Source of the DNA: Bellilinea caldifistulae
Lineage (GTDB): Bacteria > Chloroflexota > Anaerolineae > Anaerolineales > Anaerolineaceae
Length of the DNA stretch: 32,000 nucleotides
Assembly: GCF_001306055.1 (NCBI RefSeq)
Contig: NZ_LGHJ01000008.1
Span: forward strand, 1-32,000
Direction: 5' to 3'
Of the stretch, positions 6,021 through 25,762 are shown in pieces. A program made the translations under genes and the position numbers. The notes beneath the pieces are model-generated. The model made no database searches. It was not told where the DNA came from and was given only the letters and a program-made list of their open reading frames with translations. Position 1 is the first letter of the stretch; the number at the start of each line of letters is the position of its first letter.

Positions 6021-6050
6021 ACCGGTAATTGACGGACAAGGAGGTTGAAA

Positions 6051-8618: not shown

Positions 8619-8684
8619 GGGATCATCACATCCGAAGGGCTGTGTTCAAAACAGCCAATTCAGTAAAAATGGAGGTTTGCAAAA

Positions 8685-9587: not shown

Positions 9588-9606
9588 TTTCCCCGACTGA
9601 GAAATC

Positions 9607-9649
9607 CCACCCGACGGTAACTGCATTCCTGGTCGGGTGGGTGCTTTTC
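9607..9649 (+). terminator. Rho-independent terminator after the SPFH gene
   Basis: The stem pairs CCCACCCGAC (9607..9616) with GTCGGGTGGG (9633..9642), followed by TGCTTTTCT. Confidence 0.6.
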
Positions 9650-9671
9650 TCCTGCTTTCCTTCCCCTTGCT

Positions 9672-10115: not shown

Positions 10116-10143
10116 GAGGTTTCTTAAAATTTAAGCGAAGTCG

Positions 10144-10172
10144 TTGACTTTACCTGCGAGTCAGTATAATAT
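10144..10172 (+). promoter_or_regulatory. Sigma-70-type promoter (TTGACT ... TATAAT/TAATAT)
   Basis: TTGACT lies at 10144..10149. TATAAT at 10165..10170 gives a 15 nt spacer; the overlapping TAATAT at 10167..10172 gives 17 nt. Confidence 0.5.
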
Positions 10173-10234
10173 AGTAAAGAAAGGATACGAGGCGCATCCA
10201 AATGCCTGTGTTGACGACATATTCAAAGGTTGGC

Positions 10235-10261
10235 TCATTTTCTGGGCACGCGTGATGACGC
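10235..10261 (+). terminator. Intrinsic terminator inside the 5' leader of the SWIM gene
   Basis: GGCACGCG (10235..10242) pairs with CGCGTGCC (10249..10256) around a 6 nt loop, then TTTTT. It sits 43 nt before the ATG at 10304. Confidence 0.55.
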
Positions 10262-10303
10262 GTGCCTTTTTGTAAATTTCAAATCGAAAGGAGACCAGTT
10301 GAA

Positions 10304-10549
10304 ATGGATTATGGGATGATCGGGAAGCGGGAAAAAGCCAGACGGTACGCACAGGAGCGAGAGCGGATTCACTTCCATTCTTTTACCGTAACAATGGATG
10401 GGAACAACAATCCGCATCACATTCAATATGAAAATGGACGCTGGCAGTGTGATTGCGATTTCTTCAAGACGCGTGGGGTTTGCAGCCATACCATGGCGCT
10501 TGAAATCGTATTGGAGAATATGCTGGCAGCGCCGGTGAATAACCCGTAA
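10304..10549 (+). CDS. Small SWIM zinc-finger protein
   Basis: Carries a CxCx(n)CxH signature, WQCDCDFFKTRGVCSHTMAL. Start set at ATG 10304 with AAAGGAG upstream; the ORF track begins at 10262, upstream of the leader terminator. Confidence 0.65.
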   Translation: MDYGMIGKREKARRYAQERERIHFHSFTVTMDGNNNPHHIQYENGRWQCDCDFFKTRGVCSHTMALEIVLENMLAAPVNNP

Positions 10550-10567
10550 GTCACATTCGAGTAGCCC

Positions 10568-10605
10568 AAAACAAGCCCGGCGCAACAAAACCGGGCTTGT
10601 TTTTT
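10568..10605. terminator. Bidirectional terminator between convergent genes
   Basis: AAAACAAGCCCGG ... CCGGGCTTGTTTTTT forms a 10-13 bp stem with T-runs on both strands. It lies between the SWIM gene and the halogenase gene. Confidence 0.75.
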
Positions 10606-10625
10606 ATTCGTTTGGATTGCAGAAA

Positions 10626-12086
10626 TTAGATGCGCGCCAGTTTGAGGCGGGGTTTGGTCTGAACATATAAACCGTCAATCGCATCCTCTTGATTGAGGGC
10701 AAACAGACCTTCTACCGAAGAAAAGAAACGCGCATTTTCACGGGCGGCTTTGAGGTCTTCTCCCTCCAGATTGGCGAGGGCCTGTTTGTCTTTGCGAAAA
10801 TTCAAGTTTTCGCTGATCCGGTCGGTCATTTCTTTCAGGATAAAGTGGCGGGTGTTGCTTTGTGCATCGCGCAGGTCCCTGACGCCGGTAACCAGATTCA
10901 AGAAGGCCATTTTGAGGTTGTTCTCGTCCACATCCTCCTGAGTCAGACGTTGGGCTTCCCAGAAGTAGGATTCTTTTCCGCGATTGATGTCGTAGAATGC
11001 CGAGAGGAACACCAGAAAACGCAGGTAGGCCTGGCGGTAGGCTTTTTCGAAAAAGGAGACGGCCTGCTCTTCGCTGATTTCTCCTTCAAACATGGTGATT
11101 AATCCAGCAGCCGCCAGCATAGCGCTGAAGGTTGCCAGATGCACCCCGCTGGAAAGCAGGGGATCGAGAAAACATGCGGCATCACCTACCATGAAGTAAC
11201 CCGGCCCGGAGAATTTTTCTGCTGTGTAGGAATAATCGGTCTCGGTTTTGAGGTCGGAAATCAGTTCCGCATCCTGGACGATGCGGGCAATCAAAGGCGA
11301 TTCGAGCAGTGCCTGCTGGTAGATTTCCTCCAGACCCAGCGAGCGTTTCGCAGCAAGGGCATCTTTGTGCATGACAACCCCGATGCTCATCGTCCCGTCA
11401 TGGAGGGGAATTGCCCAGATCCAGCCGTTCGGAATTGAGCCTACTGCAATGTCACCTTCCCGGCCGGTAGCCAGACGGTCGGTGTTTTTCCAATAGCCCC
11501 AAAAGGCAATGTTCTTGAAAACTTGATGATAGCGGCGATTACGCAGATAACGATTTGCCATAATTCCGTTGCGTCCGCTGGCATCAATCAAATAATCGAA
11601 CGAAATGCTGCCGGTTTGTCCGGCGCTGCCGTTGCCATTCTGGTTGACCAGATAAGCAGCCGAGACGGGGCGTTCTCCCACAAATTCAAGGCTGCGGACT
11701 TCGACACCTTCAAACACTTTGACTCCCTGACTTTTGGCATGTTCGAGGAGCAGGTGATCGAATTCGGCCCGCGTGACCTGAAAACTATACGTGGTATCGC
11801 CGGCCAGTTCGCCGAAGTTGAGCGCCCAGGTGTCGCGTCCCCACTCAAGATAGGCGCCATGTTTGCGTTGAAAGCCGAAGGCTTCCATTTTTTCGCGCAT
11901 TCCTAATAGATTGATGACGTCAATCATGGTTGGGAGTAAGGATTCTCCAATGTGATAGCGCGGAAAACGTGACGCTTCGAAAAGAGTGACATCCAAACCA
12001 GCTCTGGCAAGTAAGGTGGCAGCCGTGGCCCCGCCGGGGCCGCCGCCAACGACGAAAATCTTCGTGTGAGATGGAATTTCCAGCAT
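10626..12086 (-). CDS. Flavin-dependent halogenase family protein
   Basis: Has an N-terminal FAD fold, VVGGGPGGATAA, and the halogenase-diagnostic WxWxIP motif (GWIWAIPL, nt 11406..11423). Also has the FPRYHIGESLLP segment seen in phenol/pyrrole-type halogenases. Confidence 0.75.
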   Translation of the reverse strand: MLEIPSHTKIFVVGGGPGGATAATLLARAGLDVTLFEASRFPRYHIGESLLPTMIDVINLLGMREKMEAFGFQRKHGAYLEWGRDTWALNFGELAGDTTYSFQVTRAEFDHLLLEHAKSQGVKVFEGVEVRSLEFVGERPVSAAYLVNQNGNGSAGQTGSISFDYLIDASGRNGIMANRYLRNRRYHQVFKNIAFWGYWKNTDRLATGREGDIAVGSIPNGWIWAIPLHDGTMSIGVVMHKDALAAKRSLGLEEIYQQALLESPLIARIVQDAELISDLKTETDYSYTAEKFSGPGYFMVGDAACFLDPLLSSGVHLATFSAMLAAAGLITMFEGEISEEQAVSFFEKAYRQAYLRFLVFLSAFYDINRGKESYFWEAQRLTQEDVDENNLKMAFLNLVTGVRDLRDAQSNTRHFILKEMTDRISENLNFRKDKQALANLEGEDLKAARENARFFSSVEGLFALNQEDAIDGLYVQTKPRLKLARI

Positions 12087-12393
12087 AAAAACCTGCCCTT
12101 CAGTGAACCTGATAAATTTTATTCTATTTATAGATTATCCAAGTCAACAATTGGCTTGTCAAGAGCATATTTCTTATAGGCTTCTTATAAAAATAAAAAC
12201 CTTTTTGAAATGAAAGACTCAAAAAGAAAACGTTGACAAAAACACTATACATTGTATTGAATTTGTAAAATGTATAATGTACTATAACCAAGCAGACCGT
12301 AATCCATCCTCGAGTCATTTCAACAGACGGAGAAAGGGTGCAAATGTTCCAATTTTTCAACCGAACTATTCAAGTAAAAGGGAGAAATACGAA

Positions 12394-12834
12394 ATGAAAC
12401 CGTTTGCAAAAGTTGTGTCCTTGATGGTTTTACTGGCGTTGTTCTTTGGCTTTGCCGTCAGCCCGGTGCAGGCCCAAACCAAAGGCGATCAGTGTGAGAC
12501 CTTTTTTGTCAACGTCAACCATGGCATCAACGGCACCCGACTGGGTCTTTCCAGAGAGTTGCCAGTAGTTGCGTATGTGTACAAAGATGGTGATGTGCTT
12601 GCCAAAATTCCGCTGGTATTCAAGGATAATTTTCAGGCTGAATTACCGGTAGGCGAATACACCATTGAGATCTTCTCGGAAGAGCTGGGTGTTTTCATCG
12701 ATTCGATGAAAGTCGGACCAGTGGAAATTCCCGGATGTGTCAAAGTGACTTTGCTGGCGCGACTCGGTGAAAAGGGCGAACCCACTATCCGTGTGTTGAT
12801 CCGTGAATTAGCCGGTAAAACCGCCAGCCGATAA
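12394..12834 (+). CDS. Secreted protein of unknown function, paralog A
   Basis: Signal peptide is MKPFAKVVSLMVLLALFFGFAVSPVQA. Start set at ATG 12394 with GGGAGA upstream. Clearly alignable with the 13056..13496 product. Possibly DUF4397-like; unverified. Confidence 0.7.
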   Translation: MKPFAKVVSLMVLLALFFGFAVSPVQAQTKGDQCETFFVNVNHGINGTRLGLSRELPVVAYVYKDGDVLAKIPLVFKDNFQAELPVGEYTIEIFSEELGVFIDSMKVGPVEIPGCVKVTLLARLGEKGEPTIRVLIRELAGKTASR

Positions 12835-12868
12835 TTAAATGATCAGCCCTTTTTCCCCGGTCTGTCCC

Positions 12869-12895
12869 CCGCCAGCCTTGCTGGCGGTTTTTTTT
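12869..12895 (+). terminator. Rho-independent terminator
   Basis: CCGCCAGC-cttg-CTGGCGG is followed by eight T. Confidence 0.8.
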
Positions 12896-13055
12896 AGGGG
12901 TGATTTTCAGCCTTTTTGGGAAATCACTATTGATTTTGTTTATAAAAGTGATAAACTATTAATGTGGGTGTCAATCAATCCGATTACTCCCGCCGAAAGT
13001 TCAACGAGGGGGTATGGATTGAGATCATTTCTTTTTGTTCAATAGTGGAGGAAAA

Positions 13056-13496
13056 ATGAAAACGTTTTTAAGGATTTTTTCGATTGTGATATTTCTAAGT
13101 CTTCTGGTGGGCTTTTCCTACACCCCGGCTGAAGCGGGTGGCAGATGCCCAACCTTTATTGCGCATATCACACACGGCATTGACGGGACAAAGTTAGGAT
13201 TAAGTCAGGAACTACCGGTTATTGTGGAAGTTTATTTCGGCCCGAACCTCAAATTGATGGACAAAATTGACTTGAAATTCAAAGAAAGTGTAACTGCCGA
13301 ACTTCCACGGGGAACTTACCTGATCAAGGTGTATTCGGTTGAGCTAAAACAATACGTTGAAACAATGACGGTTGGCCCAACGACCATTGAGGGGTGTAAA
13401 AAGGTGATCTTCCAGGCGCGCTTAGTGGATAATACACCCGTGATCAATGTAATCATCCGTGATCTGACGCCCAAGCCGGTGGAGGTTGCTCAGTAG
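13056..13496 (+). CDS. Secreted protein of unknown function, paralog B
   Basis: Signal peptide is MKTFLRIFSIVIFLSLLVGFSYTPAEA, with GGAGG before ATG 13056. Shares with paralog A the blocks C.TF...(V/I).HGI(N/D)GT(R/K)LGLS.ELPV, AELP.G.Y.I and VGP..I.GC.KV. Confidence 0.7.
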   Translation: MKTFLRIFSIVIFLSLLVGFSYTPAEAGGRCPTFIAHITHGIDGTKLGLSQELPVIVEVYFGPNLKLMDKIDLKFKESVTAELPRGTYLIKVYSVELKQYVETMTVGPTTIEGCKKVIFQARLVDNTPVINVIIRDLTPKPVEVAQ

Positions 13497-13533
13497 GTTT
13501 TGACCCTTTTTTCACAACAGAATATCCAATTCT

Positions 13534-13566
13534 CCAGCACCGTTATCAATTTGATGGCGGTGCTGG
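13534..13566 (+). terminator. Hairpin terminator candidate
   Basis: CCAGCACCG (13534..13542) pairs with CGGTGCTGG (13558..13566), extendable with G-T pairs. The T-run is weak (ATGTTTGT). Confidence 0.45.
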
Positions 13567-13624
13567 ATGTTTGTAGGGCGACTGGTCTGGTAGAATGGGT
13601 GTATCTCAATTGGGAGGATTGCGA

Positions 13625-14557
13625 ATGGAATTAGCCATCATGATTGAGGGGCAAAATGGTTTGAACTGGCCGCGCTGGAAGCGGATGGTTGCGGCGGTGG
13701 AGGAACTGGGCTTTACCGGTCTGTACCGCTCGGATCACTTTACCAACGCCCGACCGCCTGATAAAGATTCACTCGAATTGTGGGTCTCGTTGACCTGGTT
13801 GGCAGATCATACCCGCCGCATCCGCTTTGGGCCGCTGGTTACGCCGTTTTCATTCCGTCATCCGGCGCTGACGGCGCGCATGGCAGCCGCGGTGGATGAT
13901 CTTTCCGGCGGACGACTGACGTTGGGGGTTGGTGCCGGATGGCAGGAACGCGAACATGACCTGTTTGGCTTTGATCTGCTGCCGCCTCGCGAACGATTTG
14001 AACGTTTTGAGGAAGGGGTGATTGTCCTCAAGCAATTGCTTGGCGGTGGGCAGCCTGTCACCTTTAGCGGTAAGTACTATCGCTTGAAGGAGGCGCAGGT
14101 GCTGCCTGCACCCCAGCGCGGAGCGAAGTTGCCCATTTTGATTGGCGGCAATGGTAAAAAACGCACTCTCCCGCTGGCAGCCAGGTACGCGGATGAATGG
14201 AATGCAATCTTCCTCACACCATCCGCTTTCCGGGAATTGAACCATGAGTTGGATCACCTGATTCTTCAAAGCGGTCGCCAACCGGTTGAGGTACAGCGTT
14301 CGATGATGACCGGACTGGTGTTTGGCAAAGATCAATTCACCCTGCAGGAACGGCTAAGATTGTATGGAGGGGGCAACCTGACAGCGGCGGATTTACGCAT
14401 GCGGGGGCTGATTGTCGGCACCCCGACAGAAGTGTTGGAACAAATCCAGGCGCTGAGCGAAGCGGGTGTGCAGCGTTTGATGTTGCAATGGCTGGATCTG
14501 GATGACCTTGCCGGGTTGGAAGCACTGGCAAAGACTGTGCTGGAAAAGGTCAGTTGA
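13625..14557 (+). CDS. Luciferase-like monooxygenase (LLM) family, F420-dependent oxidoreductase type
   Basis: The product (MELAIMIEGQNGLNWPRWKRMV...GFTGLYRSDHF...GVGAGW...) is typical of LLM class F420-dependent oxidoreductases. GGGAGG SD precedes ATG 13625. Confidence 0.78.
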   Translation: MELAIMIEGQNGLNWPRWKRMVAAVEELGFTGLYRSDHFTNARPPDKDSLELWVSLTWLADHTRRIRFGPLVTPFSFRHPALTARMAAAVDDLSGGRLTLGVGAGWQEREHDLFGFDLLPPRERFERFEEGVIVLKQLLGGGQPVTFSGKYYRLKEAQVLPAPQRGAKLPILIGGNGKKRTLPLAARYADEWNAIFLTPSAFRELNHELDHLILQSGRQPVEVQRSMMTGLVFGKDQFTLQERLRLYGGGNLTAADLRMRGLIVGTPTEVLEQIQALSEAGVQRLMLQWLDLDDLAGLEALAKTVLEKVS

Positions 14558-16613
14558 CAAAATCCACCAGTCCACTTTTGTGCAAATCCTGAAAAACGGC
14601 TGGCAGGTCATTCATATAACTGAGATACAGGTAATTGCGGGCGCGGGTCATTCCCATGTAGTATAAGCGGCGTTCCTGCGACTCTTTACTTTGTCTTTGA
14701 GGGTCATTTTCGGAAAAGTTGAACGTGCGCTGCAGGAACGGCAGAATGACCGCTTCGAGTTCCAATCCTTTGAAGGCGTGTATCGTACTGATCTGAACTT
14801 CGTATCCTTTCAGCCGGGATTTCAGTTTATCAATATCATCTTTGAAACGGACTAAAATGCCGATTTGATTGTCCCGCAGTCCGCGGCTGCGCAGGGTTTG
14901 GATCGTATCCGTGATGAAGTTGAACTCATCCATTGCACCGCGGCACTTGCGCAGGAGCGGCCGCTGACCATGCCGCATGGTGTGGGGGTTCAATGCCGGA
15001 CTGACCGGTTCCCCCTCTTCTGCCAGTGATTGTTGAATTTCCTCGTAATTTTCAATCAAGCGGTAAGCAGCCTGATAAATTTCAAAAGTGTTTCGGTAAG
15101 GCACACGCAGCCAGCGGGTGCGCCCCACTACCGGGATACCTTTCTCCCTCCAACTGAAAAAGCGGTAGATACTCTGGGAGGGGTCATCGGATAAAAACAG
15201 GAAACCATCCGGTTTCAGGATTGTCTGAATCACTTTGAACCAGAGGGGAGCCCAATCCTGTGCTTCGTCTATCAGGATGGCGTCATAAGGCTCGAACTTT
15301 ACCTCGCCGCTTTGTAATTTTTGCAAGGTCAACCGATGAGCCTCCTCCCAATCCCAGCGTTGATGCGTTTCCAGAAATTGCTGATAAGCACGGTAGATTT
15401 CAAAAATTTTCTGGCGTTGTTCGCGGTTCAGGCGCAGGTCACGCCCGATGCCGCGCCGCTCGATCTTCAAGTAGGCGTCGGACTGTTCGATGCCCATGTC
15501 CCGTATCCACTTAACTTCACTTTCCAAATCGTTGGGCTTGAATTCTGCGAGGAAGGGCATGGAAGGACGATTTTCTTTCAACCAGTCCTGAAATTCAATC
15601 ATCTGGGGATCATCGAGCCGGGTGATAGAGCGGCAAAGTGCATCAAAAGTGAGCGGTTTAATCGGCGTGCCCTGAAAAGCGCGTTCCAGCATTTGCTGCA
15701 ACGCTTTGTTGTATGTAAAAACGCCAATCTTCCATTCGGGGTATTGGGCAGCTAAAAATTTCGCGCGCTGGATCATCACCAGTGTTTTACCGCTGCCGGA
15801 AAAGCCGCGCACCAGACGGATGGCGAAGTTCTGCACCAGTTGTTTGCCCTCATGTGGCAGTTCATCGGTTTCCACCGGTTGGGTTAATTGCTCAAAGAGG
15901 GCTTCCTGGCGTGCCTGTTCTTCCTGTCTGCCGGGACGCTGAACTTTTTGAGGTTCCTCTGCACGAATGGGTTCGGCAACGATTTTTTCCTGTTGCTCAT
16001 CCAGTACAATGACGCGTTGATCCTCGGTGGTAAATTCCAGGATGGGATAGATTGTCGAACGAACGTGGTCGAGTTCCTCGCGGGTCAGCGGACGCATGCG
16101 TTCGGCCGGGAAGAGGTTCTTCAAGCGGTTCAGTAGAATATCCGAATTTTCGAGATGGTATTTACCGAAGACAAACTCCTCTCCCCAAACTTTTTGTAAT
16201 TGGGTGATGGTGCTGCCGGGCAGGTTGGGCAGCACGGCTGCATAACTCCATGGGATGGCCTCACCCGGTAAGTCGCCGTTTCTCCTGCGGTTGAGTTGAT
16301 TGGAGAGATTGATGGCATAGTTGCGGGCTACCTCGACTGGATTTTTCTCCTCCCGTTCTTTATTGTTCCGTGTCAGAACAACAACCCAATGAGGGGTTGC
16401 CTGACGAACTTGAACCCAGTCCTTAACTTCTAAAACGATTACCCCGTAATTCGTCAGGATCGTAAAGTCGGGGTATTTCAGGTCACGGCTTTTGTGAATG
16501 GGCGTTTCAACGTAAACGGTGAACTCTTTGGGCAGATTGTTTTTCAAGTACCTGAGTGTTTCTTTTTCACCGAACGTTGCATCATGCCGAAGAATACCGA
16601 TGATTTCTGCCAC
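14550..16613 (-). CDS. NERD-domain (PD-ExK nuclease) + SF1 UvrD-like helicase fusion
   Basis: The N-terminal NERD domain has D49...E62-V-K64 (YPDFTIL...VLEVKDW). Helicase motifs are I GFSGSGKT, II ILIDEAQDW, III SDDPSQSIY, V TIHAFKGLE and VI YYMGMTRAR. The start is GTG with AGGGAGG 8 nt upstream. The 3' end overlaps the LLM gene by 8 nt in convergent orientation. Confidence 0.85.
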   Translation of the reverse strand: MAEIIGILRHDATFGEKETLRYLKNNLPKEFTVYVETPIHKSRDLKYPDFTILTNYGVIVLEVKDWVQVRQATPHWVVVLTRNNKEREEKNPVEVARNYAINLSNQLNRRRNGDLPGEAIPWSYAAVLPNLPGSTITQLQKVWGEEFVFGKYHLENSDILLNRLKNLFPAERMRPLTREELDHVRSTIYPILEFTTEDQRVIVLDEQQEKIVAEPIRAEEPQKVQRPGRQEEQARQEALFEQLTQPVETDELPHEGKQLVQNFAIRLVRGFSGSGKTLVMIQRAKFLAAQYPEWKIGVFTYNKALQQMLERAFQGTPIKPLTFDALCRSITRLDDPQMIEFQDWLKENRPSMPFLAEFKPNDLESEVKWIRDMGIEQSDAYLKIERRGIGRDLRLNREQRQKIFEIYRAYQQFLETHQRWDWEEAHRLTLQKLQSGEVKFEPYDAILIDEAQDWAPLWFKVIQTILKPDGFLFLSDDPSQSIYRFFSWREKGIPVVGRTRWLRVPYRNTFEIYQAAYRLIENYEEIQQSLAEEGEPVSPALNPHTMRHGQRPLLRKCRGAMDEFNFITDTIQTLRSRGLRDNQIGILVRFKDDIDKLKSRLKGYEVQISTIHAFKGLELEAVILPFLQRTFNFSENDPQRQSKESQERRLYYMGMTRARNYLYLSYMNDLPAVFQDLHKSGLVDFVN

Positions 16614-16691
16614 AGGCTATACCTCCCTAATAGCTGGTTTGTTTCTGGTTTAATTTTACACAAGAAAAGTGAAAAACAGGGCGACAGATAT

Positions 16692-17474
16692 TTATCGAAT
16701 CTCGATCTGGAGCGATTGGGTGATCTCCCCAATTTGCACGGTCAGTGTACCATTGCCCGCCGTACTGCCGGTCTCGAAGAGCCAGCGGCACAATCCCTGT
16801 TCATCGGCGCGGATAGTGCCCTCTGCGGCGTTGAGCAGCGTTTCGCCGGCCGGGTTAGTGTAGGTAAGGGTACAGGTCTGGCGTGGATTGGTTTGGATTT
16901 CGAGCAGGGCTTGCCGGTTGATCAATCCAATGGACGGGCGATGAATTATTTTAAACCCGACAAATGGACAGATCATTTCGCTGCGGTTCTTGCGATTTTC
17001 GGTTTGGCTTTGATCGGAAGATAAGGAAAGAGCGATATATTCCAAAACAGGCTGGTTGAGTTCGGAAGGCAAACCCGCGTAGGTCAATACAGCCGGCTCT
17101 TGCAAGACCATTTGACCCTCGCAGATAACCCCCTGAAAATAACGCACACTGGTTACTTCTTTGACGTAGTCATGCACCGTAACCCGTAAAAAAATGCGAT
17201 TTTGTCGAAGGCTGTAGTCTCCCCGCCACAAATTCGTGTTTTCACGGTTCAACCAGCGTTGGATATCGGATAAATCCTTTGATTGGGGCGGGGATTCAAA
17301 ACACTCACCTTGCGAGTAGAGCACCAAACCGTCGGGATAAAAACGGTAGAGTTTATAACAGCGTTCTGGCTGCTTACCGGGACTTGAAACCCTCGATATA
17401 AAAATTTCATCCATGCCGCCACTTACCGCATCGGATGGGAGCGGTTCGGCATTCAACTCAGCCGGCATGGGCAA
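16692..17474 (-). CDS. Hypothetical protein, probable lipoprotein (5' end uncertain, may reach about 17578)
   Basis: 260 aa ORF with no family recognised. The frame stays open upstream and encodes KTITVILSFFLGCLLTAC, a lipobox, but has no in-frame ATG/GTG/TTG. GTG 17578 is in the +1 frame. Confidence 0.55.
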   Translation of the reverse strand: MPMPAELNAEPLPSDAVSGGMDEIFISRVSSPGKQPERCYKLYRFYPDGLVLYSQGECFESPPQSKDLSDIQRWLNRENTNLWRGDYSLRQNRIFLRVTVHDYVKEVTSVRYFQGVICEGQMVLQEPAVLTYAGLPSELNQPVLEYIALSLSSDQSQTENRKNRSEMICPFVGFKIIHRPSIGLINRQALLEIQTNPRQTCTLTYTNPAGETLLNAAEGTIRADEQGLCRWLFETGSTAGNGTLTVQIGEITQSLQIEIR

Positions 17475-17960
17475 GGGAGTTGGCCGGAATAAACCGTTGA
17501 TGCCCGTTCCTGTGCAGGCGGTCAGCAGACAGCCAAGAAAAAAAGAGAGAATTACCGTGATGGTTTTGAAGTCAACACCCTGCCTTAGATTTTGCTAATC
17601 GGAAAATTTTCCATCCCACGAAAGAAGATGTTGTCAAAGAAGTGGATTTCACCTTGTACAATTAGAATTACTTTTGTTAGTATAACAAATTGTATCGTTT
17701 TTGTATAAAAATTGCGGGTTTGCTTTGGGGGCAATTTTTCCCTCATCAAGCAACGTGGTCAAATTCACCATTCTTAATCCCATGTCCTTAACTCGGGGCA
17801 AACAATCTCTGAAGTTCTTTATATCTTGTTCACGATTATGTAATAACACAATAGGAAATAAAAACACCGCTCTTTTTTCGAGCGGTTTGGCAGGTTTTTA
17901 TTGTGGCGGAGAGGGTGGGTGCCCGCCCATCCAAGCGTAAAGCAGGCTAAAAGCAATTAT

Positions 17961-18017
17961 TAGCCGGCTCTCGGTCTGAACCTGTTTTTTTACAGGCCAG
18001 ATTGAGAGCCGGCTTTT
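17961..18017 (+). terminator. Long imperfect hairpin followed by TTTTT
   Basis: AGCCGGCTCTC...CCTGT-ttttttt-ACAGG...GAGAGCCGGCT then TTTTT. No plus-strand CDS lies upstream. Sits at the left edge of the integrative element. Confidence 0.4.
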
Positions 18018-18051
18018 TGATTCTCCCGAAAAGCCGGCGGGAGAAAAGGAG

Positions 18052-18309
18052 ATGACCACACAACCTACCCACCCACCCCCGGGCACCTGGAATGCCCGAA
18101 ACTTACTGACCGTGCTCGAAGTGGCGGAATGGGCACGTGTCCACCCTAAAACGGTTTACCGCTGGATTAGAGATGGAAAGCTTGAAGCGATCCAATTTGG
18201 ACCGCGCACATTCCGTGTGCCGGAGGATGCCATTGGCAAGTTTCTTCAGAAAACAGGATACAAAAAGGCGTCTGAACTCCCGAAGCCAAATGGGAGAGAA
18301 CGATCATGA
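18052..18309 (+). CDS. Excisionase-family / MerR-type helix-turn-helix DNA-binding protein
   Basis: LLTVLEVAEWARVHPKTVYRWIRDGKLEAIQFGPRTFRVPEDAIGKFL matches the excisionase-type HTH_17 pattern. AAAAGGAG SD precedes the start, and the stop overlaps the next ATG (ATGA). Confidence 0.75.
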   Translation: MTTQPTHPPPGTWNARNLLTVLEVAEWARVHPKTVYRWIRDGKLEAIQFGPRTFRVPEDAIGKFLQKTGYKKASELPKPNGRERS

Positions 18310-20462
18310 ACGGCTCCTCGATCCAGCCGGAGCGGGCGTGGCAGATGGCGCTTGACCAGTTGCGTCTGGGTATGCCAAAGGCTTCTTTTGACACCTGGGT
18401 GCGGGATACCAGCTTTGTCTCGTACGCAGATGGAGTTTTCACCATCGGTACCCCCAATGCCTACGGCCGAGAATGGCTGGCAAGCCGCCTGACCAGCACG
18501 GTGACCCGCATGCTGACAGGTATCCTGAGCCAGCAGGTGGAAGTGCAGTTTATCGTCGTTGAAGCGCCAGTTGATGAATATGAGGAGTCGGAAGGCGACG
18601 AGTATGCCCAACAGATAGCAATCCCACCTGAGCAAAACCAGGATGTGCTCGCGCTGCAGGCAGCCTACCAATCCGTCTACGACGAGATCGTCCGCCCCGA
18701 CCAGGTGATCGTCCTGCCAGGCTATTTTCTTCGCTTTATCCCACTGCTCGGTGTGGAGCTGGCCTGGCTGTATATTGGCTTTCGCCAGGCGGCCTACGAA
18801 GCTGGCGCTGCGAGGCAACCTGGAAAGAAGTTCGGCGCGCCAGCACAGAAGGTTGCCAGGTACTCCGGGATGAGCCTGCGCACCTTCCGGCGCTACTCTG
18901 CAAAACCCGATACCTGGCAGCGCTTACGCGGTTTGGTTACGGCTGTCGAGGATAAACCCCGCTGGCAGCACGGCAATGATAACCATCCTCATCGGACTCC
19001 CCGCTTCTACCGGGTGGCGATGACCTTGCCATTAACTCCCTCGGATGAGCTTTCACTCCGCGCCTGGCTGTACAAACGCCTGGCTGGAGGGAAAAGCCCA
19101 CTGGTTGTGATCCGGGCTGCTTTAGAAACCCCAGCAGATGAGCTGATCCCCTGGCAAGAGAATACACCATCGTCGAGAGATGTCAACGTCGAGCTTCATT
19201 CTGTCCATGATGTGCTGAGCGCCGTGTGCGGACCAATCTCAGAAAACGATCGCAAGCAATTCCAGGAACTGGCCGATCAGTTGGCGCAGCACCTGATGCC
19301 GCCCAAAGACCTGGTCTTCCTCACACACTACTTCGTGACCCGATGGCTGCCCAAACTGGGTCATGGGCAGGGTTGGTTCGTGGTGTTGCTGCGCGACCGC
19401 TGTTATATCAACCCTCGCACGGGCGAAATCCGGGATGAAGCACGGGTAGAACAGGGCTACGCAGAGATCGCTGGCTGGTTAGGCTTGAAACGCGTCAAAA
19501 CGATCTGGGAATGGCTGCGCAACGATGATGTCAGCCGGTTCGTCCGCGAGATAAGCCACGAGATTGGCGAATGGGAAGAATCGCCGCGCCGCTTCAAAGT
19601 CTGCCTGGGTGAACCGATGACCGATGAAGACCAGACCCGGGCAAATAAATCGTTAGCCCATAGAGGGTTTGGCGCAGTTGACACCTATAGCCAGCCGATT
19701 GGCGCGAATGACACCATTAGGAATGAGTGCACCAGCGGCTCCGTTGGCGCGGTTGACACCCATAATGGCGGAATTGACACCATTAGTGGCGCGAGTGACA
19801 CCATTAGGGATGGATATAGCAACGATCTTATTGGCGCAGTTGACACCCATAATGGCGCGATAGACACCGATCGTGGCGCGAATGGCACTCCCATTGGCGG
19901 TGATGACACCCATAGGGTTGGCGCGGATGTCACCTTTGATTGGCGCGAGTGGCACAGTTTAAATACCTTAGCACTTGGTTTGAATCACAAGAAAAATACG
20001 CCAACCACCACCGGCTCCGAGATCGAATCCGATTTGGAAATTCCAGCTAGCACAATCAGAAAGGGGGTGGTGGGCATGGAATGGAATTTATCGGAATTGC
20101 TCCTCCGAAACCGAATAAGCGTCAAGAACCAGGAGTTGCTCCTGGAAAATGGTTTAACAGCGCAGGCATTGGTTTCCTGGCTGCTTTACGCCGCCAGCAC
20201 AAGCGGAAATGGCATCCGTGATCCCATCGCCCATGCTGTCTCTCGATTAATCCCAGACCCAAGTCGAGGTGCAGGTGGCGTCTTTGATCAGCTATCCGAG
20301 GTGCCTGCCAACGAACTGGCGGACATGCTCCTCAGAGAAATCGAAGGACAAAGCCCCTGGAACCAGGTATGGCGAAAAGCAATGAAAGGTACACCTTGTT
20401 CACGACTGCGAACGCTGGCTGATCAGTTGGGTATACCGGTTTCGGACCTTGGTAATTGGTGA
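18306..20462 (+). CDS. Putative replication initiator with a DnaA N-terminal-like domain and an internal heptad/iteron repeat block
   Basis: The N-terminus (WQMALDQLRLGMPKASFDTWVRDTSFVSYADGVFTIGTPNAYGREWLASRL...VEVQFIV) parallels DnaA domain I. A central HTH-like segment reads KVARYSGMSLRTFRRY. Residues encoded by 19671..19961 form GxxDTxx heptads. Confidence 0.55.
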   Translation: MNGSSIQPERAWQMALDQLRLGMPKASFDTWVRDTSFVSYADGVFTIGTPNAYGREWLASRLTSTVTRMLTGILSQQVEVQFIVVEAPVDEYEESEGDEYAQQIAIPPEQNQDVLALQAAYQSVYDEIVRPDQVIVLPGYFLRFIPLLGVELAWLYIGFRQAAYEAGAARQPGKKFGAPAQKVARYSGMSLRTFRRYSAKPDTWQRLRGLVTAVEDKPRWQHGNDNHPHRTPRFYRVAMTLPLTPSDELSLRAWLYKRLAGGKSPLVVIRAALETPADELIPWQENTPSSRDVNVELHSVHDVLSAVCGPISENDRKQFQELADQLAQHLMPPKDLVFLTHYFVTRWLPKLGHGQGWFVVLLRDRCYINPRTGEIRDEARVEQGYAEIAGWLGLKRVKTIWEWLRNDDVSRFVREISHEIGEWEESPRRFKVCLGEPMTDEDQTRANKSLAHRGFGAVDTYSQPIGANDTIRNECTSGSVGAVDTHNGGIDTISGASDTIRDGYSNDLIGAVDTHNGAIDTDRGANGTPIGGDDTHRVGADVTFDWREWHSLNTLALGLNHKKNTPTTTGSEIESDLEIPASTIRKGVVGMEWNLSELLLRNRISVKNQELLLENGLTAQALVSWLLYAASTSGNGIRDPIAHAVSRLIPDPSRGAGGVFDQLSEVPANELADMLLREIEGQSPWNQVWRKAMKGTPCSRLRTLADQLGIPVSDLGNW
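19671..19961 (+). repeat. Eleven direct 20-21 bp repeats, consensus GGCGCGnnTGACACCnATAG (iteron-like)
   Basis: Hand-located copies start at 19671, 19701, 19746, 19767, 19788, 19833, 19854, 19875, 19896, 19920 and 19942. Spacings are 30, 45, 21, 21, 45, 21, 21, 21, 24 and 22 nt. The block is stop-free in several frames, since extra ORFs appear on both strands. Confidence 0.85.
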
Positions 20463-20489
20463 TTTGGTTCAGTTACATGGAGGTGTGAC

Positions 20490-20966
20490 ATGAAAAAGAT
20501 TGGTTTCTTCATCGCTCTGGTGTTGTTGGTTTTACTGGCTGCGGCTGCATGCGGGCCAGGCGACAATGCTGTGGAGATTGCCCAGGCGCAGAGCGTGATC
20601 GAGGCTGCCCGCGCCGCTCAGCATGCTGCCCGGGCAGCGCAGATCGCCTCCCAAGGATTGAGCGATGTGGGACGAGGTCAAACGTTGATCCTAATACTCC
20701 TGACCCTGGTGGTGGCTCTGCTGATTGGTGTGGCAGCCTATATTGTCATCCAACGCCAGGTTTGGAAGCACAGCCAGGTTCAACCAAAGAACAATGGCCG
20801 CTGGATGAGTGGGCCGAACGCCCACTGGAAGCGAGTGGATGCTCTTGATCCTTACCAACAACTGCTCCTCCAACAGCAAATGCTGCTTACCCAGCTTCTG
20901 CAGCAAAGCCAGGTCGAATCCGAAGATGATGATCGACCTCAACTGCCTGCTGGGTGGTGGGGATAA
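20490..20966 (+). CDS. Membrane lipoprotein, unknown function
   Basis: Signal/lipobox is LLAAAACG. Has a central TM helix (TLILILLTLVVALLIGVAAYIVI) and a Gln/Leu-rich tail. GGAGG SD precedes the start. Confidence 0.6.
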   Translation: MKKIGFFIALVLLVLLAAAACGPGDNAVEIAQAQSVIEAARAAQHAARAAQIASQGLSDVGRGQTLILILLTLVVALLIGVAAYIVIQRQVWKHSQVQPKNNGRWMSGPNAHWKRVDALDPYQQLLLQQQMLLTQLLQQSQVESEDDDRPQLPAGWWG

Positions 20967-20989
20967 ATGCGGCTAGTGAGGATGTCCAC

Positions 20990-21988
20990 ATGAAAACCCA
21001 CAAGTTATCTATCCTGCTCATTCTAATGTTGGCTGGAGGGATACTGACCGCATGCGATGATGCTGCTTATATCAGCGCAGATCCCAATGTCTCCGGAGTT
21101 CAGGCTAGAGCGACCCTGGAATTTGTACAGGCTGTGCAGACTTCTACCGCGCAGGCTTTGTATGCCGCCGAATGGCAGGCGACCGTCCAGGCAGGGGCGA
21201 CGCAGGATGCTATCCAGGCTGCCTATGTCGCTGCTCAGGCGACCGAAGAAAGCATCCGAGCTGCGGCAGCAGCCACCCAGACTCAACAGGTGTGGAACGC
21301 CACCGCAACAGCCGATAGCAGTCAGGCAACCGCCACGGCTGCCGCCAATGCCATGGCAGTGAGCTGGTCGAGCACCGCTACCCAATCTGCCTGGAACAAC
21401 CAGGCTACTGTCGAAGTCGCCAGCGTACAGGCATTGCAAACCGCTCAAGCTGCTCAAGCCGATATGGCTCGAATGGCGGCGGAGCGTCAGCGCACGATCA
21501 ATAAAATTCAAGCCGCCGCTCCCTGGGTGATCCTGGCAATCGCTGTCCCTTTGGTGGCGTATCTGGCCTGGATCTGGGGCAACACAGAAGCTCTGCGCCG
21601 GCGCGCCATCCCGCGGGATCCGCGTGGGGATGCACCTATCCTGATCCTGGATGACCATGGCAGGCGCAATGTCATCGACCCGGATTTGTTCTTCGGCGCA
21701 GCCGTGTCGATCGGTAAGGGAGGCCAACCGGAAGCTCCGCAGTTGGCTGCTCCTGAGCTGCAATCACAGGTGAAGGCGCGTGACCAGGCTGTCGATCTCG
21801 TCAGCCGTGGCCTTCCCGGTCAGCCTCCGCGCAGGCGCGCTTTACCTGCCCTAACACAACCTCCCTCAAATCTGTTGTTAGGCGATGTCCGGATAGTGGA
21901 GCCCGACGAAGTCAAGGATTGGATTTCAGATGTGCTGCCGCGTATCCAGCAAAAGGCGCTACAGGAAGGAGAAGACGATGATGTTTGA
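20990..21988 (+). CDS. Membrane lipoprotein with Ala/Gln/Thr-rich low-complexity ectodomain
   Basis: Start set at ATG 20990 (MKTHKLSILLILMLAGGILTAC lipobox, GAGGA 8 nt upstream). Has an internal TM (PWVILAIAVPLVAYLAWIW). Its position fits Spd-like spread proteins of AICEs, which is inference only. Confidence 0.55.
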   Translation: MKTHKLSILLILMLAGGILTACDDAAYISADPNVSGVQARATLEFVQAVQTSTAQALYAAEWQATVQAGATQDAIQAAYVAAQATEESIRAAAAATQTQQVWNATATADSSQATATAAANAMAVSWSSTATQSAWNNQATVEVASVQALQTAQAAQADMARMAAERQRTINKIQAAAPWVILAIAVPLVAYLAWIWGNTEALRRRAIPRDPRGDAPILILDDHGRRNVIDPDLFFGAAVSIGKGGQPEAPQLAAPELQSQVKARDQAVDLVSRGLPGQPPRRRALPALTQPPSNLLLGDVRIVEPDEVKDWISDVLPRIQQKALQEGEDDDV

Positions 21989-22298
21989 AACCAACAACTT
22001 CATATCCAGGCGTTACCAACTCCAGGCGCAGATTGTCGCGAAGCGGCTGCCGCAGGTGCTGCAACAGCGCGGCCTGGAAGCGGCGTTTGCTGAATTTTTG
22101 CTCACCTCGACCCAGGGCATGGTGCTGCTCTTTGCCATTCTGGATCTGCCCCGCGTCAGGCGTCTGGAAGCCTATACCACTCCCGAACTATTGCATCACC
22201 TGAGCACCGATTTGCAGGGGTTGCCGGTGTTCCTCTCTAACTCGAATGGGCTGCGTTACGCCATCCCGCTATCCCCGCTTCCCCGCCTGCCAAAGTAA
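21978..22298 (+). CDS. Hypothetical protein
   Basis: ATG 21978 has GGAAGGAG upstream and overlaps the preceding stop. 106 aa, no recognisable motif. Confidence 0.45.
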   Translation: MMFETNNFISRRYQLQAQIVAKRLPQVLQQRGLEAAFAEFLLTSTQGMVLLFAILDLPRVRRLEAYTTPELLHHLSTDLQGLPVFLSNSNGLRYAIPLSPLPRLPK

Positions 22299-22312
22299 TT
22301 CCATTCCCCGGT

Positions 22313-23338
22313 GTGATGGATGGCTGGGTTCAGTTGGGCGTCAACCACAGCGGCGAGACGATCAGCCAACCCTGGTCGAGACTTGGTCACCTGTTGGTGG
22401 CTGGCAAGACAGGTTCCGGGAAATCTGTCTATCTGCGTTTGTTGGCATACCAGGCGATTGCTGAAGGCGCTCAGCTCCTCCTGGTGGACTTAGACGGCGC
22501 CACCTTCCCGATGCTGACCAATCACCCAACTTTGTTGGCTCCAATCGCAACGACACCGCAAGCAGCTCAAGCTGCAGTCGAGCGTGCCCTCGGCGAGTGC
22601 AACCATCGGGCAGGACTGTATCTGCAAATGGACGGATACCCTGAAAGTCTGGAAGAGTATAACCGGACAATCGTCCGACATGGAAGCGACCCGCTCTCCC
22701 GGCTGCTGGTAGTGCTGGATGAGTTCAGCGCTTTGATGACCACTCTGGGTGGTCCGAAGAGCAGTTTTGCGAATCGGGTCGCAGAGTTAGGCTGGCGTGG
22801 GCGCAAATTTGGCGTCCACCTGGTATTCGCAGCCCAGGATTTTACCAAGCAGGTGGTAGGTCGGGTGCGTGACCAGGTCAGCGCCGCAGTCTGCTTCCGG
22901 GTGCGTAGCCTGGAAGCTGCCCGTGCGATGGGTTGCCCGGAAGCGGTGCGTATTCCGGAGAGTCGCCCTGGACTGGCATGTACCGACCGTTGGGGATTGG
23001 TGCAGACCTTTTACCTGGACAAGCGCATGTTCGGGCAGGTTGGCCCAAGGTCTGTGCTTAGTCGTCAAGAGCAGGAATTGGTGGAGCGCGCTTTGAACGA
23101 AGCCGAGGGCAAGATGTCCATCCCGCTGCTTGTGTCATGGGGAATGCCAGAGCGTGGGGCGCGTTCGCTGGTAGAGAGTTGGGAGCTACGTGGCTGGCTG
23201 CGCCAGGATCCGTCTCGCCAGAACGCTCGCTATATCACCCCGAAATTGAAAGCATTGCTGGCTGCTTTTGCCAGCAATGCCAATTCCTTGTCAAACAGTC
23301 AAGATGGTCAAACCGCGTCAAGCACATCAAGCTGGTGA
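22313..23338 (+). CDS. FtsK/SpoIIIE-family DNA translocase (TraB/TraSA-like)
   Basis: Walker A is VAGKTGSGKSVYL and Walker B is LLVVLDEFSAL, followed by HLVFAAQDF. This is the typical FtsK motor-domain order. Confidence 0.8.
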   Translation: MMDGWVQLGVNHSGETISQPWSRLGHLLVAGKTGSGKSVYLRLLAYQAIAEGAQLLLVDLDGATFPMLTNHPTLLAPIATTPQAAQAAVERALGECNHRAGLYLQMDGYPESLEEYNRTIVRHGSDPLSRLLVVLDEFSALMTTLGGPKSSFANRVAELGWRGRKFGVHLVFAAQDFTKQVVGRVRDQVSAAVCFRVRSLEAARAMGCPEAVRIPESRPGLACTDRWGLVQTFYLDKRMFGQVGPRSVLSRQEQELVERALNEAEGKMSIPLLVSWGMPERGARSLVESWELRGWLRQDPSRQNARYITPKLKALLAAFASNANSLSNSQDGQTASSTSSW

Positions 23339-23349
23339 GGAGTAAGTAT

Positions 23350-24123
23350 ATGCATACGACAATAGCAATCTTGAACCAAAAAGGTGGGGTCGGGAAGACA
23401 ACAACCGCAGTAACCCTGGCATCAGGTTTGGCCAAAAGCGGATATCACGTTTTGCTGATTGACCTGGATACCCAGGGCAATGTCGCCGACAGCCTGGGCT
23501 TGCCGCACAATGATGACCTTCGCCGGCTGCTTTCACCTGATTTACGCGTTCCAATCGACCAGGTCACCACATCGAGCGGATTAGATCATCTGGATGTCAT
23601 CCGCTCTGACAAGAGCACTACTGCTTTGAAACAAACCCTGGCTGGTGTAACCATGCGAGAGTACGTCCTGGCGGATGTGCTGGAAAGTGTTGCGCATGAC
23701 GTGATCCTGCTGGACTGCGCTCCTTCAGCCGATCTTCTGCACTTCGCTGCGCTGGTCGCCGCAGACTATCTGCTAATCCCCACCCGTCTCGACAAGCTGG
23801 CGGTGAATGGTGTGCGCGATGCCCTGCAAACGCTGGCTGCGTTGAGGCGAATCAGCCGCTGCCAGGTGGCTGGCATTTTGCCTACATTCTACGAAAGAGT
23901 CACTTTGGAAAGCCATGAGCAGCTGATCCACCTGGCACAAACTTTTGGCAAGCTTGTGTTGCCACCAATCCCACAAGATACCCAATGCCGTGTGGCGACT
24001 CGCTACGGGAAGACGCTGTGGGACTACGCCCCGAATGCCAAAGCCTTGATTGGTTACGAGCAAGGCAACCGGCGAGTGGGCGGATATCTACAAGTTTTAG
24101 AACGAGTAAAGGAATGGCTATGA
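23350..24123 (+). CDS. parA: ParA/Soj-family partition ATPase
   Basis: Deviant Walker A is NQKGGVGKTTT at the N-terminus, when the start is set at ATG 23350 (GAGGAG SD). The ORF track extends further upstream to 23137. Confidence 0.85.
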   Translation: MHTTIAILNQKGGVGKTTTAVTLASGLAKSGYHVLLIDLDTQGNVADSLGLPHNDDLRRLLSPDLRVPIDQVTTSSGLDHLDVIRSDKSTTALKQTLAGVTMREYVLADVLESVAHDVILLDCAPSADLLHFAALVAADYLLIPTRLDKLAVNGVRDALQTLAALRRISRCQVAGILPTFYERVTLESHEQLIHLAQTFGKLVLPPIPQDTQCRVATRYGKTLWDYAPNAKALIGYEQGNRRVGGYLQVLERVKEWL

Positions 24124-24524
24124 ACAGGAACACAAAAGGATTAACCAGTTTTGAAGAATTGCCCGCGGTTGACCCGGCGGTCGAGTCGCTGCTTGGGCAG
24201 GGGCAGCGTCGCCAGGATGAAGCCCGCCTGGCGCGCGCCGAGCGATCCCGCAAGAAGAAGGAGCGCGAGCGAGCGGAAAAGCGCAAACCCAACCGCATCA
24301 ACCTCGACCTGCCAGTGGATTTGAAAAAGCGCCTGGAGCAGCTGGCGAAGAAGGAGGGCGTGCCCATCAGCCAGTTGGTGGCTTTCCTGCTCTACGAGCC
24401 GGTGCACCAGCTGGAGAGCCGGGCGATCAGCCTGTGGGGCTACAAGACCGCCTCCGGCTGCCCCAAGTTCGAGTGCAACCTGGATCTGAAACGCCGCGCA
24501 GATGAGGCGGCGCGGAAAACATGA
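24120..24524 (+). CDS. Ribbon-helix-helix (CopG/ParG-like) DNA-binding protein
   Basis: The ATG overlaps the parA stop (ATGA). Has a basic Arg/Lys-rich N-tail followed by the RHH pattern RINLDLPVDLKKRLEQLAKKEGVPISQLVAFLL. Confidence 0.65.
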   Translation: MNRNTKGLTSFEELPAVDPAVESLLGQGQRRQDEARLARAERSRKKKERERAEKRKPNRINLDLPVDLKKRLEQLAKKEGVPISQLVAFLLYEPVHQLESRAISLWGYKTASGCPKFECNLDLKRRADEAARKT

Positions 24525-24537
24525 AACTTTGGCTCTG

Positions 24538-24629
24538 TAGGGCGTCCTGAGGCGATTTGTAGGGCGTCCCAATAGGGCAGCCTACTAGGGCGTCCTATTG
24601 GAGAAAACCCCAAAAATCATAGGGCGTCC
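24538..24629 (+). repeat. Five direct copies of TAGGGCGTCC (one degenerate)
   Basis: Copies lie at 24538, 24560, 24573 (TAGGGCAGCC), 24586 and 24620. All are in the 225 nt gap between the RHH gene and the integrase gene. Confidence 0.85.
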
Positions 24630-24749
24630 TAAGAGCCAACAGGAAGGCTCAGGAGCCACGAAATCTGAGGGGTGGTTATCTTTGATCATAAAGCGAAAAA
24701 CCGCCCTTGAAAGGGCAAAAATATACACGACAAGAATGGAGACCGAAAG

Positions 24750-25673
24750 ATGACAGACACGCTGCACCTGAACGAATTCCAAGCGTATTTGTTAGCCGAG
24801 GATCGCTCGCCGGTAACAATCACTGGCTATTTGGGTGATGTGCGCTTATTCGCCCAATGGTATGAGGGGCATTATCGGGAAGCATTGATCCCTGCTTCTC
24901 TGACAAACGAAGCCGTACGCAATTATAAGCAGCACCTTCTTGACCAGGCTGCCAAACCCAAAACGATCAACCGGCGGTTGGCAGCTTTGGCAGCTTATGC
25001 TCACTGGCTGGAGCAGGCAGGATATGTAAAGAATGCACGCAATCCAGTCCAGGGGGTGAAGGCTGTGAAGGAAACCGCGCTTGCTCCCAAGTGGTTGGAT
25101 AAGAAACAGCGTGCAGCATTGTTAAGAGCGGTTGATAAGGAAGTTGATGATGCCGTGCGCCGTTACCCACGCCTACGATTAATGTATCTGCGCGACGCAG
25201 CGATCGTAAAACTGATCCTGTTTGCCGGCCTGCGAGTAGGAGAAATTATCCAGTTGCGTATGAGCGACATTGTTTTGGATGAGCGAAAGGGAAGCGTAGT
25301 CGTCCGGGAGGGGAAAGGTACAAAGAGGCGCGAGATCCCGCTGAATGCCAAAGCGTGCAAAGCTTTGCTCGATTATATGCAAGTGAGACCAGACATAGAA
25401 AGCAACGAGCTTTTTCTTGGCCAACGTAATGAAGGCGTGCAGAGCAAGACCATCCAGCGGGCTGTACAACGCTTTGCGAAAAAAGCAGGGCTCAAAATGG
25501 TTACTCCTCATACCCTGCGCCATAGTTTTGCCAAAGCTTTAATCGACGCAGGGGTATCCCTGGAAAAGGTTGCGACGTTGCTTGGGCACAGCAACTTGAA
25601 CACGACCCGGATTTATACAACTCCGGGGGTGCAAGATTTAGAAGACGCGATAAATGAGTTGGAAGATTTTTAG
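24750..25673 (+). CDS. Tyrosine recombinase / integrase (XerC/D-like)
   Basis: Has an N-terminal SAM-like domain and the catalytic pattern AGLRVGE ... HTLRHSFA ... LLGHSNLNTTRIYT (R, H-x-x-R, H, Y). Confidence 0.9.
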   Translation: MTDTLHLNEFQAYLLAEDRSPVTITGYLGDVRLFAQWYEGHYREALIPASLTNEAVRNYKQHLLDQAAKPKTINRRLAALAAYAHWLEQAGYVKNARNPVQGVKAVKETALAPKWLDKKQRAALLRAVDKEVDDAVRRYPRLRLMYLRDAAIVKLILFAGLRVGEIIQLRMSDIVLDERKGSVVVREGKGTKRREIPLNAKACKALLDYMQVRPDIESNELFLGQRNEGVQSKTIQRAVQRFAKKAGLKMVTPHTLRHSFAKALIDAGVSLEKVATLLGHSNLNTTRIYTTPGVQDLEDAINELEDF

Positions 25674-25762
25674 ACATCCCTGGAAGTATTCTGTTGTCGC
25701 GTTAAGCCGAACTGTTACTGCTTATGATATGCTGGGGTGGCTTGGATAGCCCTCACCGATTA

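Follow-up and report, generated by a model that had tools for sequence, protein, structure and literature searches.

A repeat array within the gene of a putative replication initiator as the probable origin of a small integrative element in Anaerolineae

In this study we analysed a window of 32,000 nucleotides from Bellilinea caldifistulae (contig NZ_LGHJ01000008.1, positions 1 to 32,000), which carries a small integrative element and, within it, a gene for a putative replication initiator of 718 amino acids. The coding sequence of this gene contains 11 direct repeats that are followed by an AT-rich tract. The comparison of these sequences across homologous loci suggests that the array is probably the iteron part of the vegetative origin (oriV) of the element, lying in that part of the initiator gene which codes for a disordered and seemingly dispensable linker. 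The features on which this reading depends are as follows, in window coordinates:

17906-25680, no strand: integrative element of ~7.78 kb, 56% GC, recognised by homology and Pfam domains
18306-20462, + strand: putative replication initiator, 718 aa
19662-20075, + strand: coding segment of the predicted disordered linker (aa 453-590), which holds the array and the AT tract
19670-19960, + strand: 11 direct repeats (putative iterons), the first copy starting at 19671; core T-GGCGC-R-nn-TG-R-CAC-C-nn-T
19957-20000, + strand: AT-rich tract, putative DNA-unwinding element, recognised by composition
20001-20012, + strand: short G+C-rich block (CCAACCACCACC / CCACCACC) encoding TPTTT, seen by eye

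When the window was searched for GGCGCGnnTGACACC with at most two mismatches, copies were found to start at 19671, 19701, 19746, 19767, 19788, 19833, 19854, 19875, 19896, 19920 and 19942. The spacings are 30, 45, 21, 21, 45, 21, 21, 21, 24 and 22 nt, that is, either 21-24 nt or multiples of this distance with degenerate copies in between. The 11 copies conform to TGGCGCRnnTGRCACC, and a position-by-position summary gave a repeat core of ~19 nt (T-GGCGC-R-nn-TG-R-CAC-C-nn-T). The degenerate core GGCGCRNNTGRCAC, allowing at most one mismatch on both strands of the 32 kb, matched 10 times within 19671-19955 and once elsewhere (13873), and in 100 dinucleotide shuffles the same search found 0.79 matches on average and 3 at most, with 11 reached in none of them. 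Nowhere else in the window does the motif form a cluster, and all copies of the array lie on one strand. With 11 copies of a ~19-nt core it falls within the description of an iteron array as at least three direct repeats of ~17-22 bp at a distance of about two helical turns. All 11 copies are located within the open reading frame (ORF) 18306-20462, where the array corresponds to aa 456-552. The first ten are in codon phase 0 and encode G-A/G-x-D/G-T, and the eleventh (19942) is in phase +1 and encodes W-R-E-W-H. These results bear out the first-pass annotation of this DNA, which had described 11 repeats at 19671-19961, ten of them read in one frame and the last, at a spacing of 22 nt, read as WREWH. 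Two other candidates for a cis-acting element in this segment were rejected: an RNA-level element, given that folding of 19660-19960 resulted in z = -0.27 and the window had no Rfam match, and host DnaA boxes, given that TTATCCACA at no more than one mismatch occurred only at chance level and nowhere near the array.

Homologues of the putative initiator form 287 clusters, with 542 relatives in genome contigs (one genome per species), almost all of them in metagenome-assembled genomes of Anaerolineae/Chloroflexota. For comparison we took 79 homologous loci, which makes 80 with the window. In the window the ten in-frame copies form a regular heptad, and among close homologues the copy number and length of the array vary (7-15 copies), as they do in slippage-prone repeats. 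Both observations would suit a protein-level tandem repeat, namely a GAxDT heptad linker in which the DNA likeness would be a residue of recent duplication or concerted evolution and the DNA would have no cis role. However, comparison with three loci whose proteins share 69-73% identity with that of the window (L004, L005 and L006) pointed in another direction. The amino acid identity of the repeat region (aa 456-552) was 0.58-0.68 versus 0.80-0.82 in the central domain, whereas codon identity at identical residues was 0.84-0.93 in the repeat region versus 0.55-0.59 in its flanks. The codon choice was then tallied in 25 loci with the repeats defined by their peptide only (GAx[DG]T) and the remainder of the same genes taken as the reference. 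The repeat Gly was encoded by GGC in 105 of 105 cases (37% elsewhere) and the repeat Asp by GAC in 80 of 81 (38% elsewhere), the repeat Ala was never encoded by GCC (38% elsewhere), and the variable repeat codon ended in T in 104 of 105 cases (21% gene-wide). In the WRxWH motif, Arg was CGC in 24 of 25 cases and His was CAC in 25 of 25. The peptide repeats and the DWREWHSLN motif that follows them persist down to ~35% protein identity, and in these distant homologues, with copies 22-23 nt apart, one DNA motif is read as GAxDT, WRxWH and MAQVAP (ATGGCGCAAGTGGCACC).

The same pattern was seen across the family. In 61 of the 80 loci, a motif-agnostic detector found that the densest local cluster of repeats within +/-8 kb was an array inside the gene, at the same position. 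In 59 of these 61 arrays the copies are spread over two or more codon phases, and in 22 over all three. The most frequent spacings are 22 nt (n=96), 23 nt (n=84), 24 nt (n=60), 45 nt (n=35) and 21 nt (n=26), and many subfamilies alternate strictly between 23 and 22 nt, which gives a period of ~22.5 bp and restores the reading frame every 45 nt (two repeats, 15 codons). At the same position of the gene the repeat sequence itself is specific to the subfamily (e.g., GAGTGGCGCGAATGACAGTA, GTGGCGCGAWTTTCAGTATCG, TGGACGCAAATGGnAGnAATA, GCGCGGTTTGTAGTATCG and CACGCGAATGTCCCC). Eleven genomes carry two paralogous loci; both arrays were detected and differed in type in six of them, the types were the same or similar in two (L052/L055 and L037/L040), and the array of one locus was undetected in three. 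The paralogues L017 and L031, which carry different repeat types, are found at opposite ends of one long-read contig (CAWIOV010000002.1, 558,738 bp), at 799-18676 and 545657-558738, and they would be neighbours close to its start point if the contig were circular.

The DNA of the repeats thus carries a constraint that is independent of the encoded peptide, evident both at synonymous sites and in the use of multiple frames. The repeats must hold both the helical register and the open reading frame, and therefore selection would act on the DNA. We consider it strongly supported by the sequence comparisons that selection keeps the repeat DNA and not the peptide, and the best explanation of the GAxDT, WRxWH and MAQVAP peptides appears to be that they are largely by-products of one DNA motif read in different frames. 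The first-pass annotation had argued from the single out-of-frame copy that the DNA motif itself is maintained, had pointed to the synonymous positions of homologues as the place to look, and had named conserved heptads with scrambled codons as the outcome that would speak against it. The opposite was found: the synonymous sites are fixed, the amino acids have diverged faster in this segment than elsewhere in the protein, and the out-of-frame copy has counterparts, as distant homologues read the same DNA motif in two or three frames. A pure peptide repeat is hard to reconcile with codon choice that stays fixed across lineages at ~35% protein identity, with amino acids that vary while synonymous sites remain constant, with a motif read in three frames and with a segment predicted to be disordered. 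Moreover, where the 22/23-nt alternation occurs, the peptide repeat is left as a mere 15-residue by-product. We regard this explanation as extremely improbable, and the codon and frame data appear to have largely refuted it already.

The second component of the putative origin is the AT-rich tract, which comes directly after the last repeat. The segment 19959-19998 is 72.5% AT, the highest value of any 40-mer in the 56%-GC element. When 57 loci were aligned on the last repeat, the mean AT content was 0.66-0.67 at +20 to +60 nt versus ~0.45 on either side, and in 46 of these 57 loci the AT maximum within +/-400 nt began 0-40 nt past the point where the last repeat starts. CTTTAA/CTCTTAA motifs recur within the tract, and Leu at the beginning of the tract is encoded by TTA in 18 of 21 cases, a codon that is otherwise rare (8% gene-wide). 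The TPTTT-encoding block after the tract is common to most loci, across subfamilies with different iterons. Thus, an AT-rich region of the kind that the first reading had suggested to look for adjoins the repeats in the window and forms a peak at the same place in the family.

Repeats bound by the initiator could also serve mainly for regulation, by roadblock autorepression or by handcuffing in copy control, with the origin located elsewhere. The iterons of known plasmids function in both initiation and control, and the present data fit either role of the array. However, the conserved AT tract next to the array favours initiation at this site, and no other repeat cluster accompanied by an AT tract is conserved across the loci of the family. 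An exclusively regulatory array is therefore in our opinion an unlikely alternative to an origin within the gene.

The 718-aa protein has several properties that would suit an initiator. Its N-terminus, which had been likened to DnaA domain I from the sequence, was confirmed as such by Pfam (PF11638, E 8e-7, aa 10-70), by a PDB profile match (4tps_B/8btg_A, E ~3e-11) and by Foldseek (TM 0.85-0.88 to 4tps), so that the array indeed lies in an ORF with a domain-I N-terminus. A Foldseek search with the full-length protein returned domain I only, the only PHROG match was the DnaA_N-like segment of phrog_26369, and the score against the DnaA model TIGR00362 was 26.8 bits versus a cut-off of 343.9. 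In the full-length AlphaFold2 model, built from 28 sequences, domain I (aa 8-84) is followed by an acidic disordered segment (87-111), a folded region (112-452), a disordered linker (453-590) and a helical C-terminal domain (591-714), with a predicted local distance difference test score (pLDDT) below 32 over aa 451-590. The repeats are thus situated within the initiator ORF in what is predicted to be a linker between folded domains. The central region modelled alone (pLDDT 86, predicted template modelling score 0.85) consists of two alpha/beta modules whose elements follow a winged-helix-like order. Most of its weak Foldseek matches in the PDB are to winged-helix proteins, and among the matches is the N-terminal domain of RepA_N (4pql_A, probability 0.66, E 1.6). 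In BFVD the best match was a 'Replication initiator protein' from Podoviridae (E 3.7e-3 over 325 columns), and the next ones were replicon-initiation and replisome-organizer proteins of phages. In addition, 9 of 13 members had Pfam helix-turn-helix (HTH) matches, below threshold, at aa 174-207. Together with the searches of curated families described below, these data suggest that the protein is initiator-like, yet it belongs to no curated Rep family.

On this basis the following course of initiation can be proposed. The 718-aa protein would bind the ~19-bp repeats via its central winged-helix-like region; indirect support for specific binding of the repeats by the protein comes from the restriction of each repeat type to its subfamily. 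The copies are 21-24 bp apart, about two helical turns, so that the bound protomers would be placed on one face of the DNA and could oligomerise. Such an oligomer may then stress and open the adjoining 40-bp AT tract (19957-20000), and the DnaA-domain-I module may recruit the replicative helicase of the host or the helicase loader, by analogy with the role of domain I in DnaA.

An origin inside the initiator gene is a textbook principle, exemplified by lambda O, RepA_N plasmids and repC, and is not new in itself. What resembles these systems here is the mechanism and architecture, not the membership in a protein family. In lambdoid and Stx phages, gene O carries at its centre direct repeats bound by the initiator and then an AT-rich tract, and the repeat number varies between relatives and alters the length of the protein (PMC7466680). 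The likeness to the lambda ori that had been drawn earlier holds for this layout: both parts are central in the initiator gene and, as transcription runs, the iterons come before the AT tract. However, the protein has no sequence relation to O and no Phage_rep_O Pfam or PHROG match. Lambda has 4-6 copies versus 11 here, and the gene studied here differs further in its DnaA-domain-I N-terminus, its Chloroflexota host and its location on a small integrative element. A phage origin was rejected as well: in INPHARED, relatives were found only through DnaA domain I, and in IMG/VR there were none.

In pSK41 the Rep boxes are central in rep, and the segment encoded by the origin links an N-terminal winged-HTH domain with a C-terminal domain that binds a host factor (PMC5703833). 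RepA_N theta replicons of Firmicutes (pSK41 and pAD1-type) thus share with the window gene the central position of the repeats and their coding for a linker, but the window protein has no PF06970 match, is twice as long and contains the additional DnaA-domain-I module. In repABC replicons of Alphaproteobacteria, the origin is located inside the initiator gene repC (PMC3155836). In most of the distant members of our family a parA-like gene is likewise found together with a small gene and rep, an order that resembles repABC, whereas RepC homology is absent, a long iteron array is lacking at the repC origin and the phylum differs. The gene content of the element (int, xis, rep and an FtsK-like gene) is analogous to that of the integrative and conjugative elements of actinomycetes (AICEs), small integrative elements with int, xis, rep and an FtsK/SpoIIIE-type transfer gene (PMC2440964). 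It differs from AICEs in the Anaerolineae host, in a Rep that is not of the RepSA (rolling-circle), RepAM or prim-pol types, in the presence of ParA/RHH genes and in the frameshift of the FtsK-like gene. DnaA itself shares the fold and the sequence signature of the N-terminal domain I, but the window protein has neither the AAA+ domain III nor the DnaA-box-binding domain IV, and DnaA boxes are absent near the array. With regard to Rep_3 / RepE-pi iteron initiators (PF01051), which have a Rep_3 domain with tandem WH1-WH2, the model of the central region shows two modules of winged-helix-like order; there is no Pfam match to PF01051 and no significant PDB match.

The element itself was delimited by blastn against L001, L003, L005, L008 and L081. 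A block of ~7.78 kb (17906-25680) recurs in these loci with 72-89% DNA identity between unrelated flanks, the homology starting at 17904/17906 and ending at 25649-25674. This block therefore represents a small integrative element, in agreement with the context given by the first-pass annotation, with boundaries that are set only by the loss of homology. The remaining features of the element are as follows:

18052-18309, + strand: Xis-like / MerR-type HTH_17 gene (PF12728, E 5e-10; PHROG excisionase families)
21978-23338, + strand: FtsK/SpoIIIE-like translocase gene (Pfam PF01580), split over two frames
23137-24524, + strand: partition module consisting of ParA (23137-24123) and an RHH/CopG-like protein (ORF 23985-24524), from the domain search
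24538-24629, + strand: second, unrelated repeat set TAGGGCGTCC, four copies with at most one mismatch and a degenerate fifth, between the RHH gene and int
24750-25673, + strand: tyrosine integrase (XerC/D-like; PF00589, E 8e-38)

The stop codon of the Xis-like gene overlaps the start of the initiator gene, the 3' end and stop codon of the integrase gene coincide with the right boundary of the element, and three hypothetical or membrane genes complete the gene set. The left end is sharp and starts with GCGGAGAGGGTGGGTGCCCGCCCATCC in all the copies examined (L001, L003, L010 and L081). No direct repeat of at least 8 nt that could represent an att site was found between the two ends of the element and no target duplication was found at them, the flanks being different in every genome. 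The 7953-nt L081 contig was considered as a circular form but this was ruled out, as it contains the element in integrated form, next to a left flank that differs. The flank in L081 holds GGCGGAGAGGGTCGCGC...ACCCTCGC repeats resembling the end of the element, a hint that the insertion went into repeated palindromes. Just beyond the left boundary of the window element lies a gene for a NERD-UvrD/REP-type helicase (14550-16613, - strand); it is not conserved beside the homologous elements and is therefore probably part of the host genome or of another island. Promoter and terminator scans near the initiator gene revealed nothing above background. Tandem Repeats Finder detected a 33-nt tandem repeat at 9303-9373 (2.2 copies, 84% match), which is unrelated to the array.

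Several results weigh against the array being a replication origin. A complete circular replicon with a full-length family member was not found, and a terminal overlap marking a circle was present in 0 of 19 fully captured small contigs. The sole relative in PLSDB (L080; AP024711.1, 196974-197861) is located on a 212-kb plasmid of Leptolinea sp. HRD-7, where the protein is truncated to 295 aa, comprising domain I and part of the central region without the C-terminal domain; two small genes precede the truncated gene and no repeat array occurs nearby. The protein has no match to a Pfam Rep family, and the Foldseek search of the central domain against the PDB gave no significant match to a solved initiator (all E > 1). 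Copies of the motif outside the gene, apart from a few singletons, were absent from the window and from the +/-8 kb flanks of ~30 loci, the promoter not having been scanned for a partial inverted copy. Finally, a ParA-like gene is the most conserved neighbour (62 of 79 loci), and a role in partition is possible.

The latter observation is also the principal argument for reading the repeats as a partition site (centromere) bound by the RHH/ParB-like partner of ParA and not by the initiator. The usual gene order is parA, a small gene and rep, and most of the loci in which an RHH homologue occurs share the TGGCGCRnnTGRCAC repeat type. However, this correlation is equally expected from shared ancestry alone. 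The array always lies in rep, on the coding strand and before an AT tract, which is the layout of an origin and not of a centromere, and in the window the par genes are 3.2 kb away and have a conserved repeat set of their own. This set of four to five TAGGGCGTCC copies is kept at the same position in L001-L008 and may act in partition, as an RHH operator or as integrase arm-type sites. Moreover, the arrays persist in L011, L014, L029 and L061, which have no ParA-like ORF in the available flanks. Distant loci also have perfect palindromes just upstream of parA. We observed these perfect inverted repeats of 13-16 nt directly upstream of parA in L013 (6654-6685), L015 (6648-6682), L020 (277-312) and L023 (6627-6662), all of them distant loci with the order parA, RHH, rep; they may serve as par operators or parS sites, or may terminate the upstream genes. 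Also upstream in L023 are two tRNA-T-arm-like segments (TCGCGGGTTCGAATCC), which suggests a tRNA-linked insertion. On balance, we consider a centromere within rep to be improbable.

TraB-type translocases recognise short direct repeats, sometimes inside genes, and the element of the window encodes an FtsK/SpoIIIE-domain protein. The array could in principle be a clt-like site for this translocase, comparable to the TraB recognition sequences (TRS) of Streptomyces. However, the FtsK-like gene is present in only 12 of 79 loci versus arrays in 61 of 80, and the close relatives L004 and L007 keep the array although they lack the FtsK block. Furthermore, a unit of ~19 bp with a period of 22-23 bp and a downstream AT tract is unlike the 8-bp TRS motifs. 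Such a role of the array is very improbable. The gene itself was found to be split by tblastn with the intact 453-aa orthologue of L081, whose aa 1-106 matched frame 3 and whose aa 74-436 matched frame 2. The break is near an 8-9-nt tandem repeat at 22265-22286, and the split may reflect a pseudogene, variation by slippage or an error in sequencing.

Beyond the probable origin in the window, a more general interpretation, to which we assign about an even chance, is that these genes represent an uncharacterised class of initiators, with the window gene as its first example, composed of DnaA domain I, tandem winged-helix-like modules, a disordered linker encoded by the origin and a C-terminal domain. 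The class would be a common replicon of plasmids and integrative elements of Anaerolineae, in which an iteron phasing of ~22.5 bp is fitted to the ORF by the 22/23-nt alternation, one DNA motif is read in all three frames, the peptide motifs are pure by-products and the ~2.2-kb gene is a self-contained minimal replicon.

We know of no genetic tools for Anaerolineae. If this interpretation is correct, the ~2.2-kb replicon would be usable as a vector backbone in this class, and rep with its internal ori offers a compact candidate replicon (~2.2 kb) for vectors of Chloroflexota. The arrays are also an unusually clean natural case of cis-acting DNA overriding the constraint on a protein, with three frames in use, synonymous sites frozen and amino acids free, and they call for caution in interpreting conserved peptide repeats. 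The origin reading would also assign a function to a large family of 'hypothetical proteins' (287 clusters, >540 relatives among species-representative genomes) as the replication module of plasmids and integrative elements in Anaerolineae/Chloroflexota.

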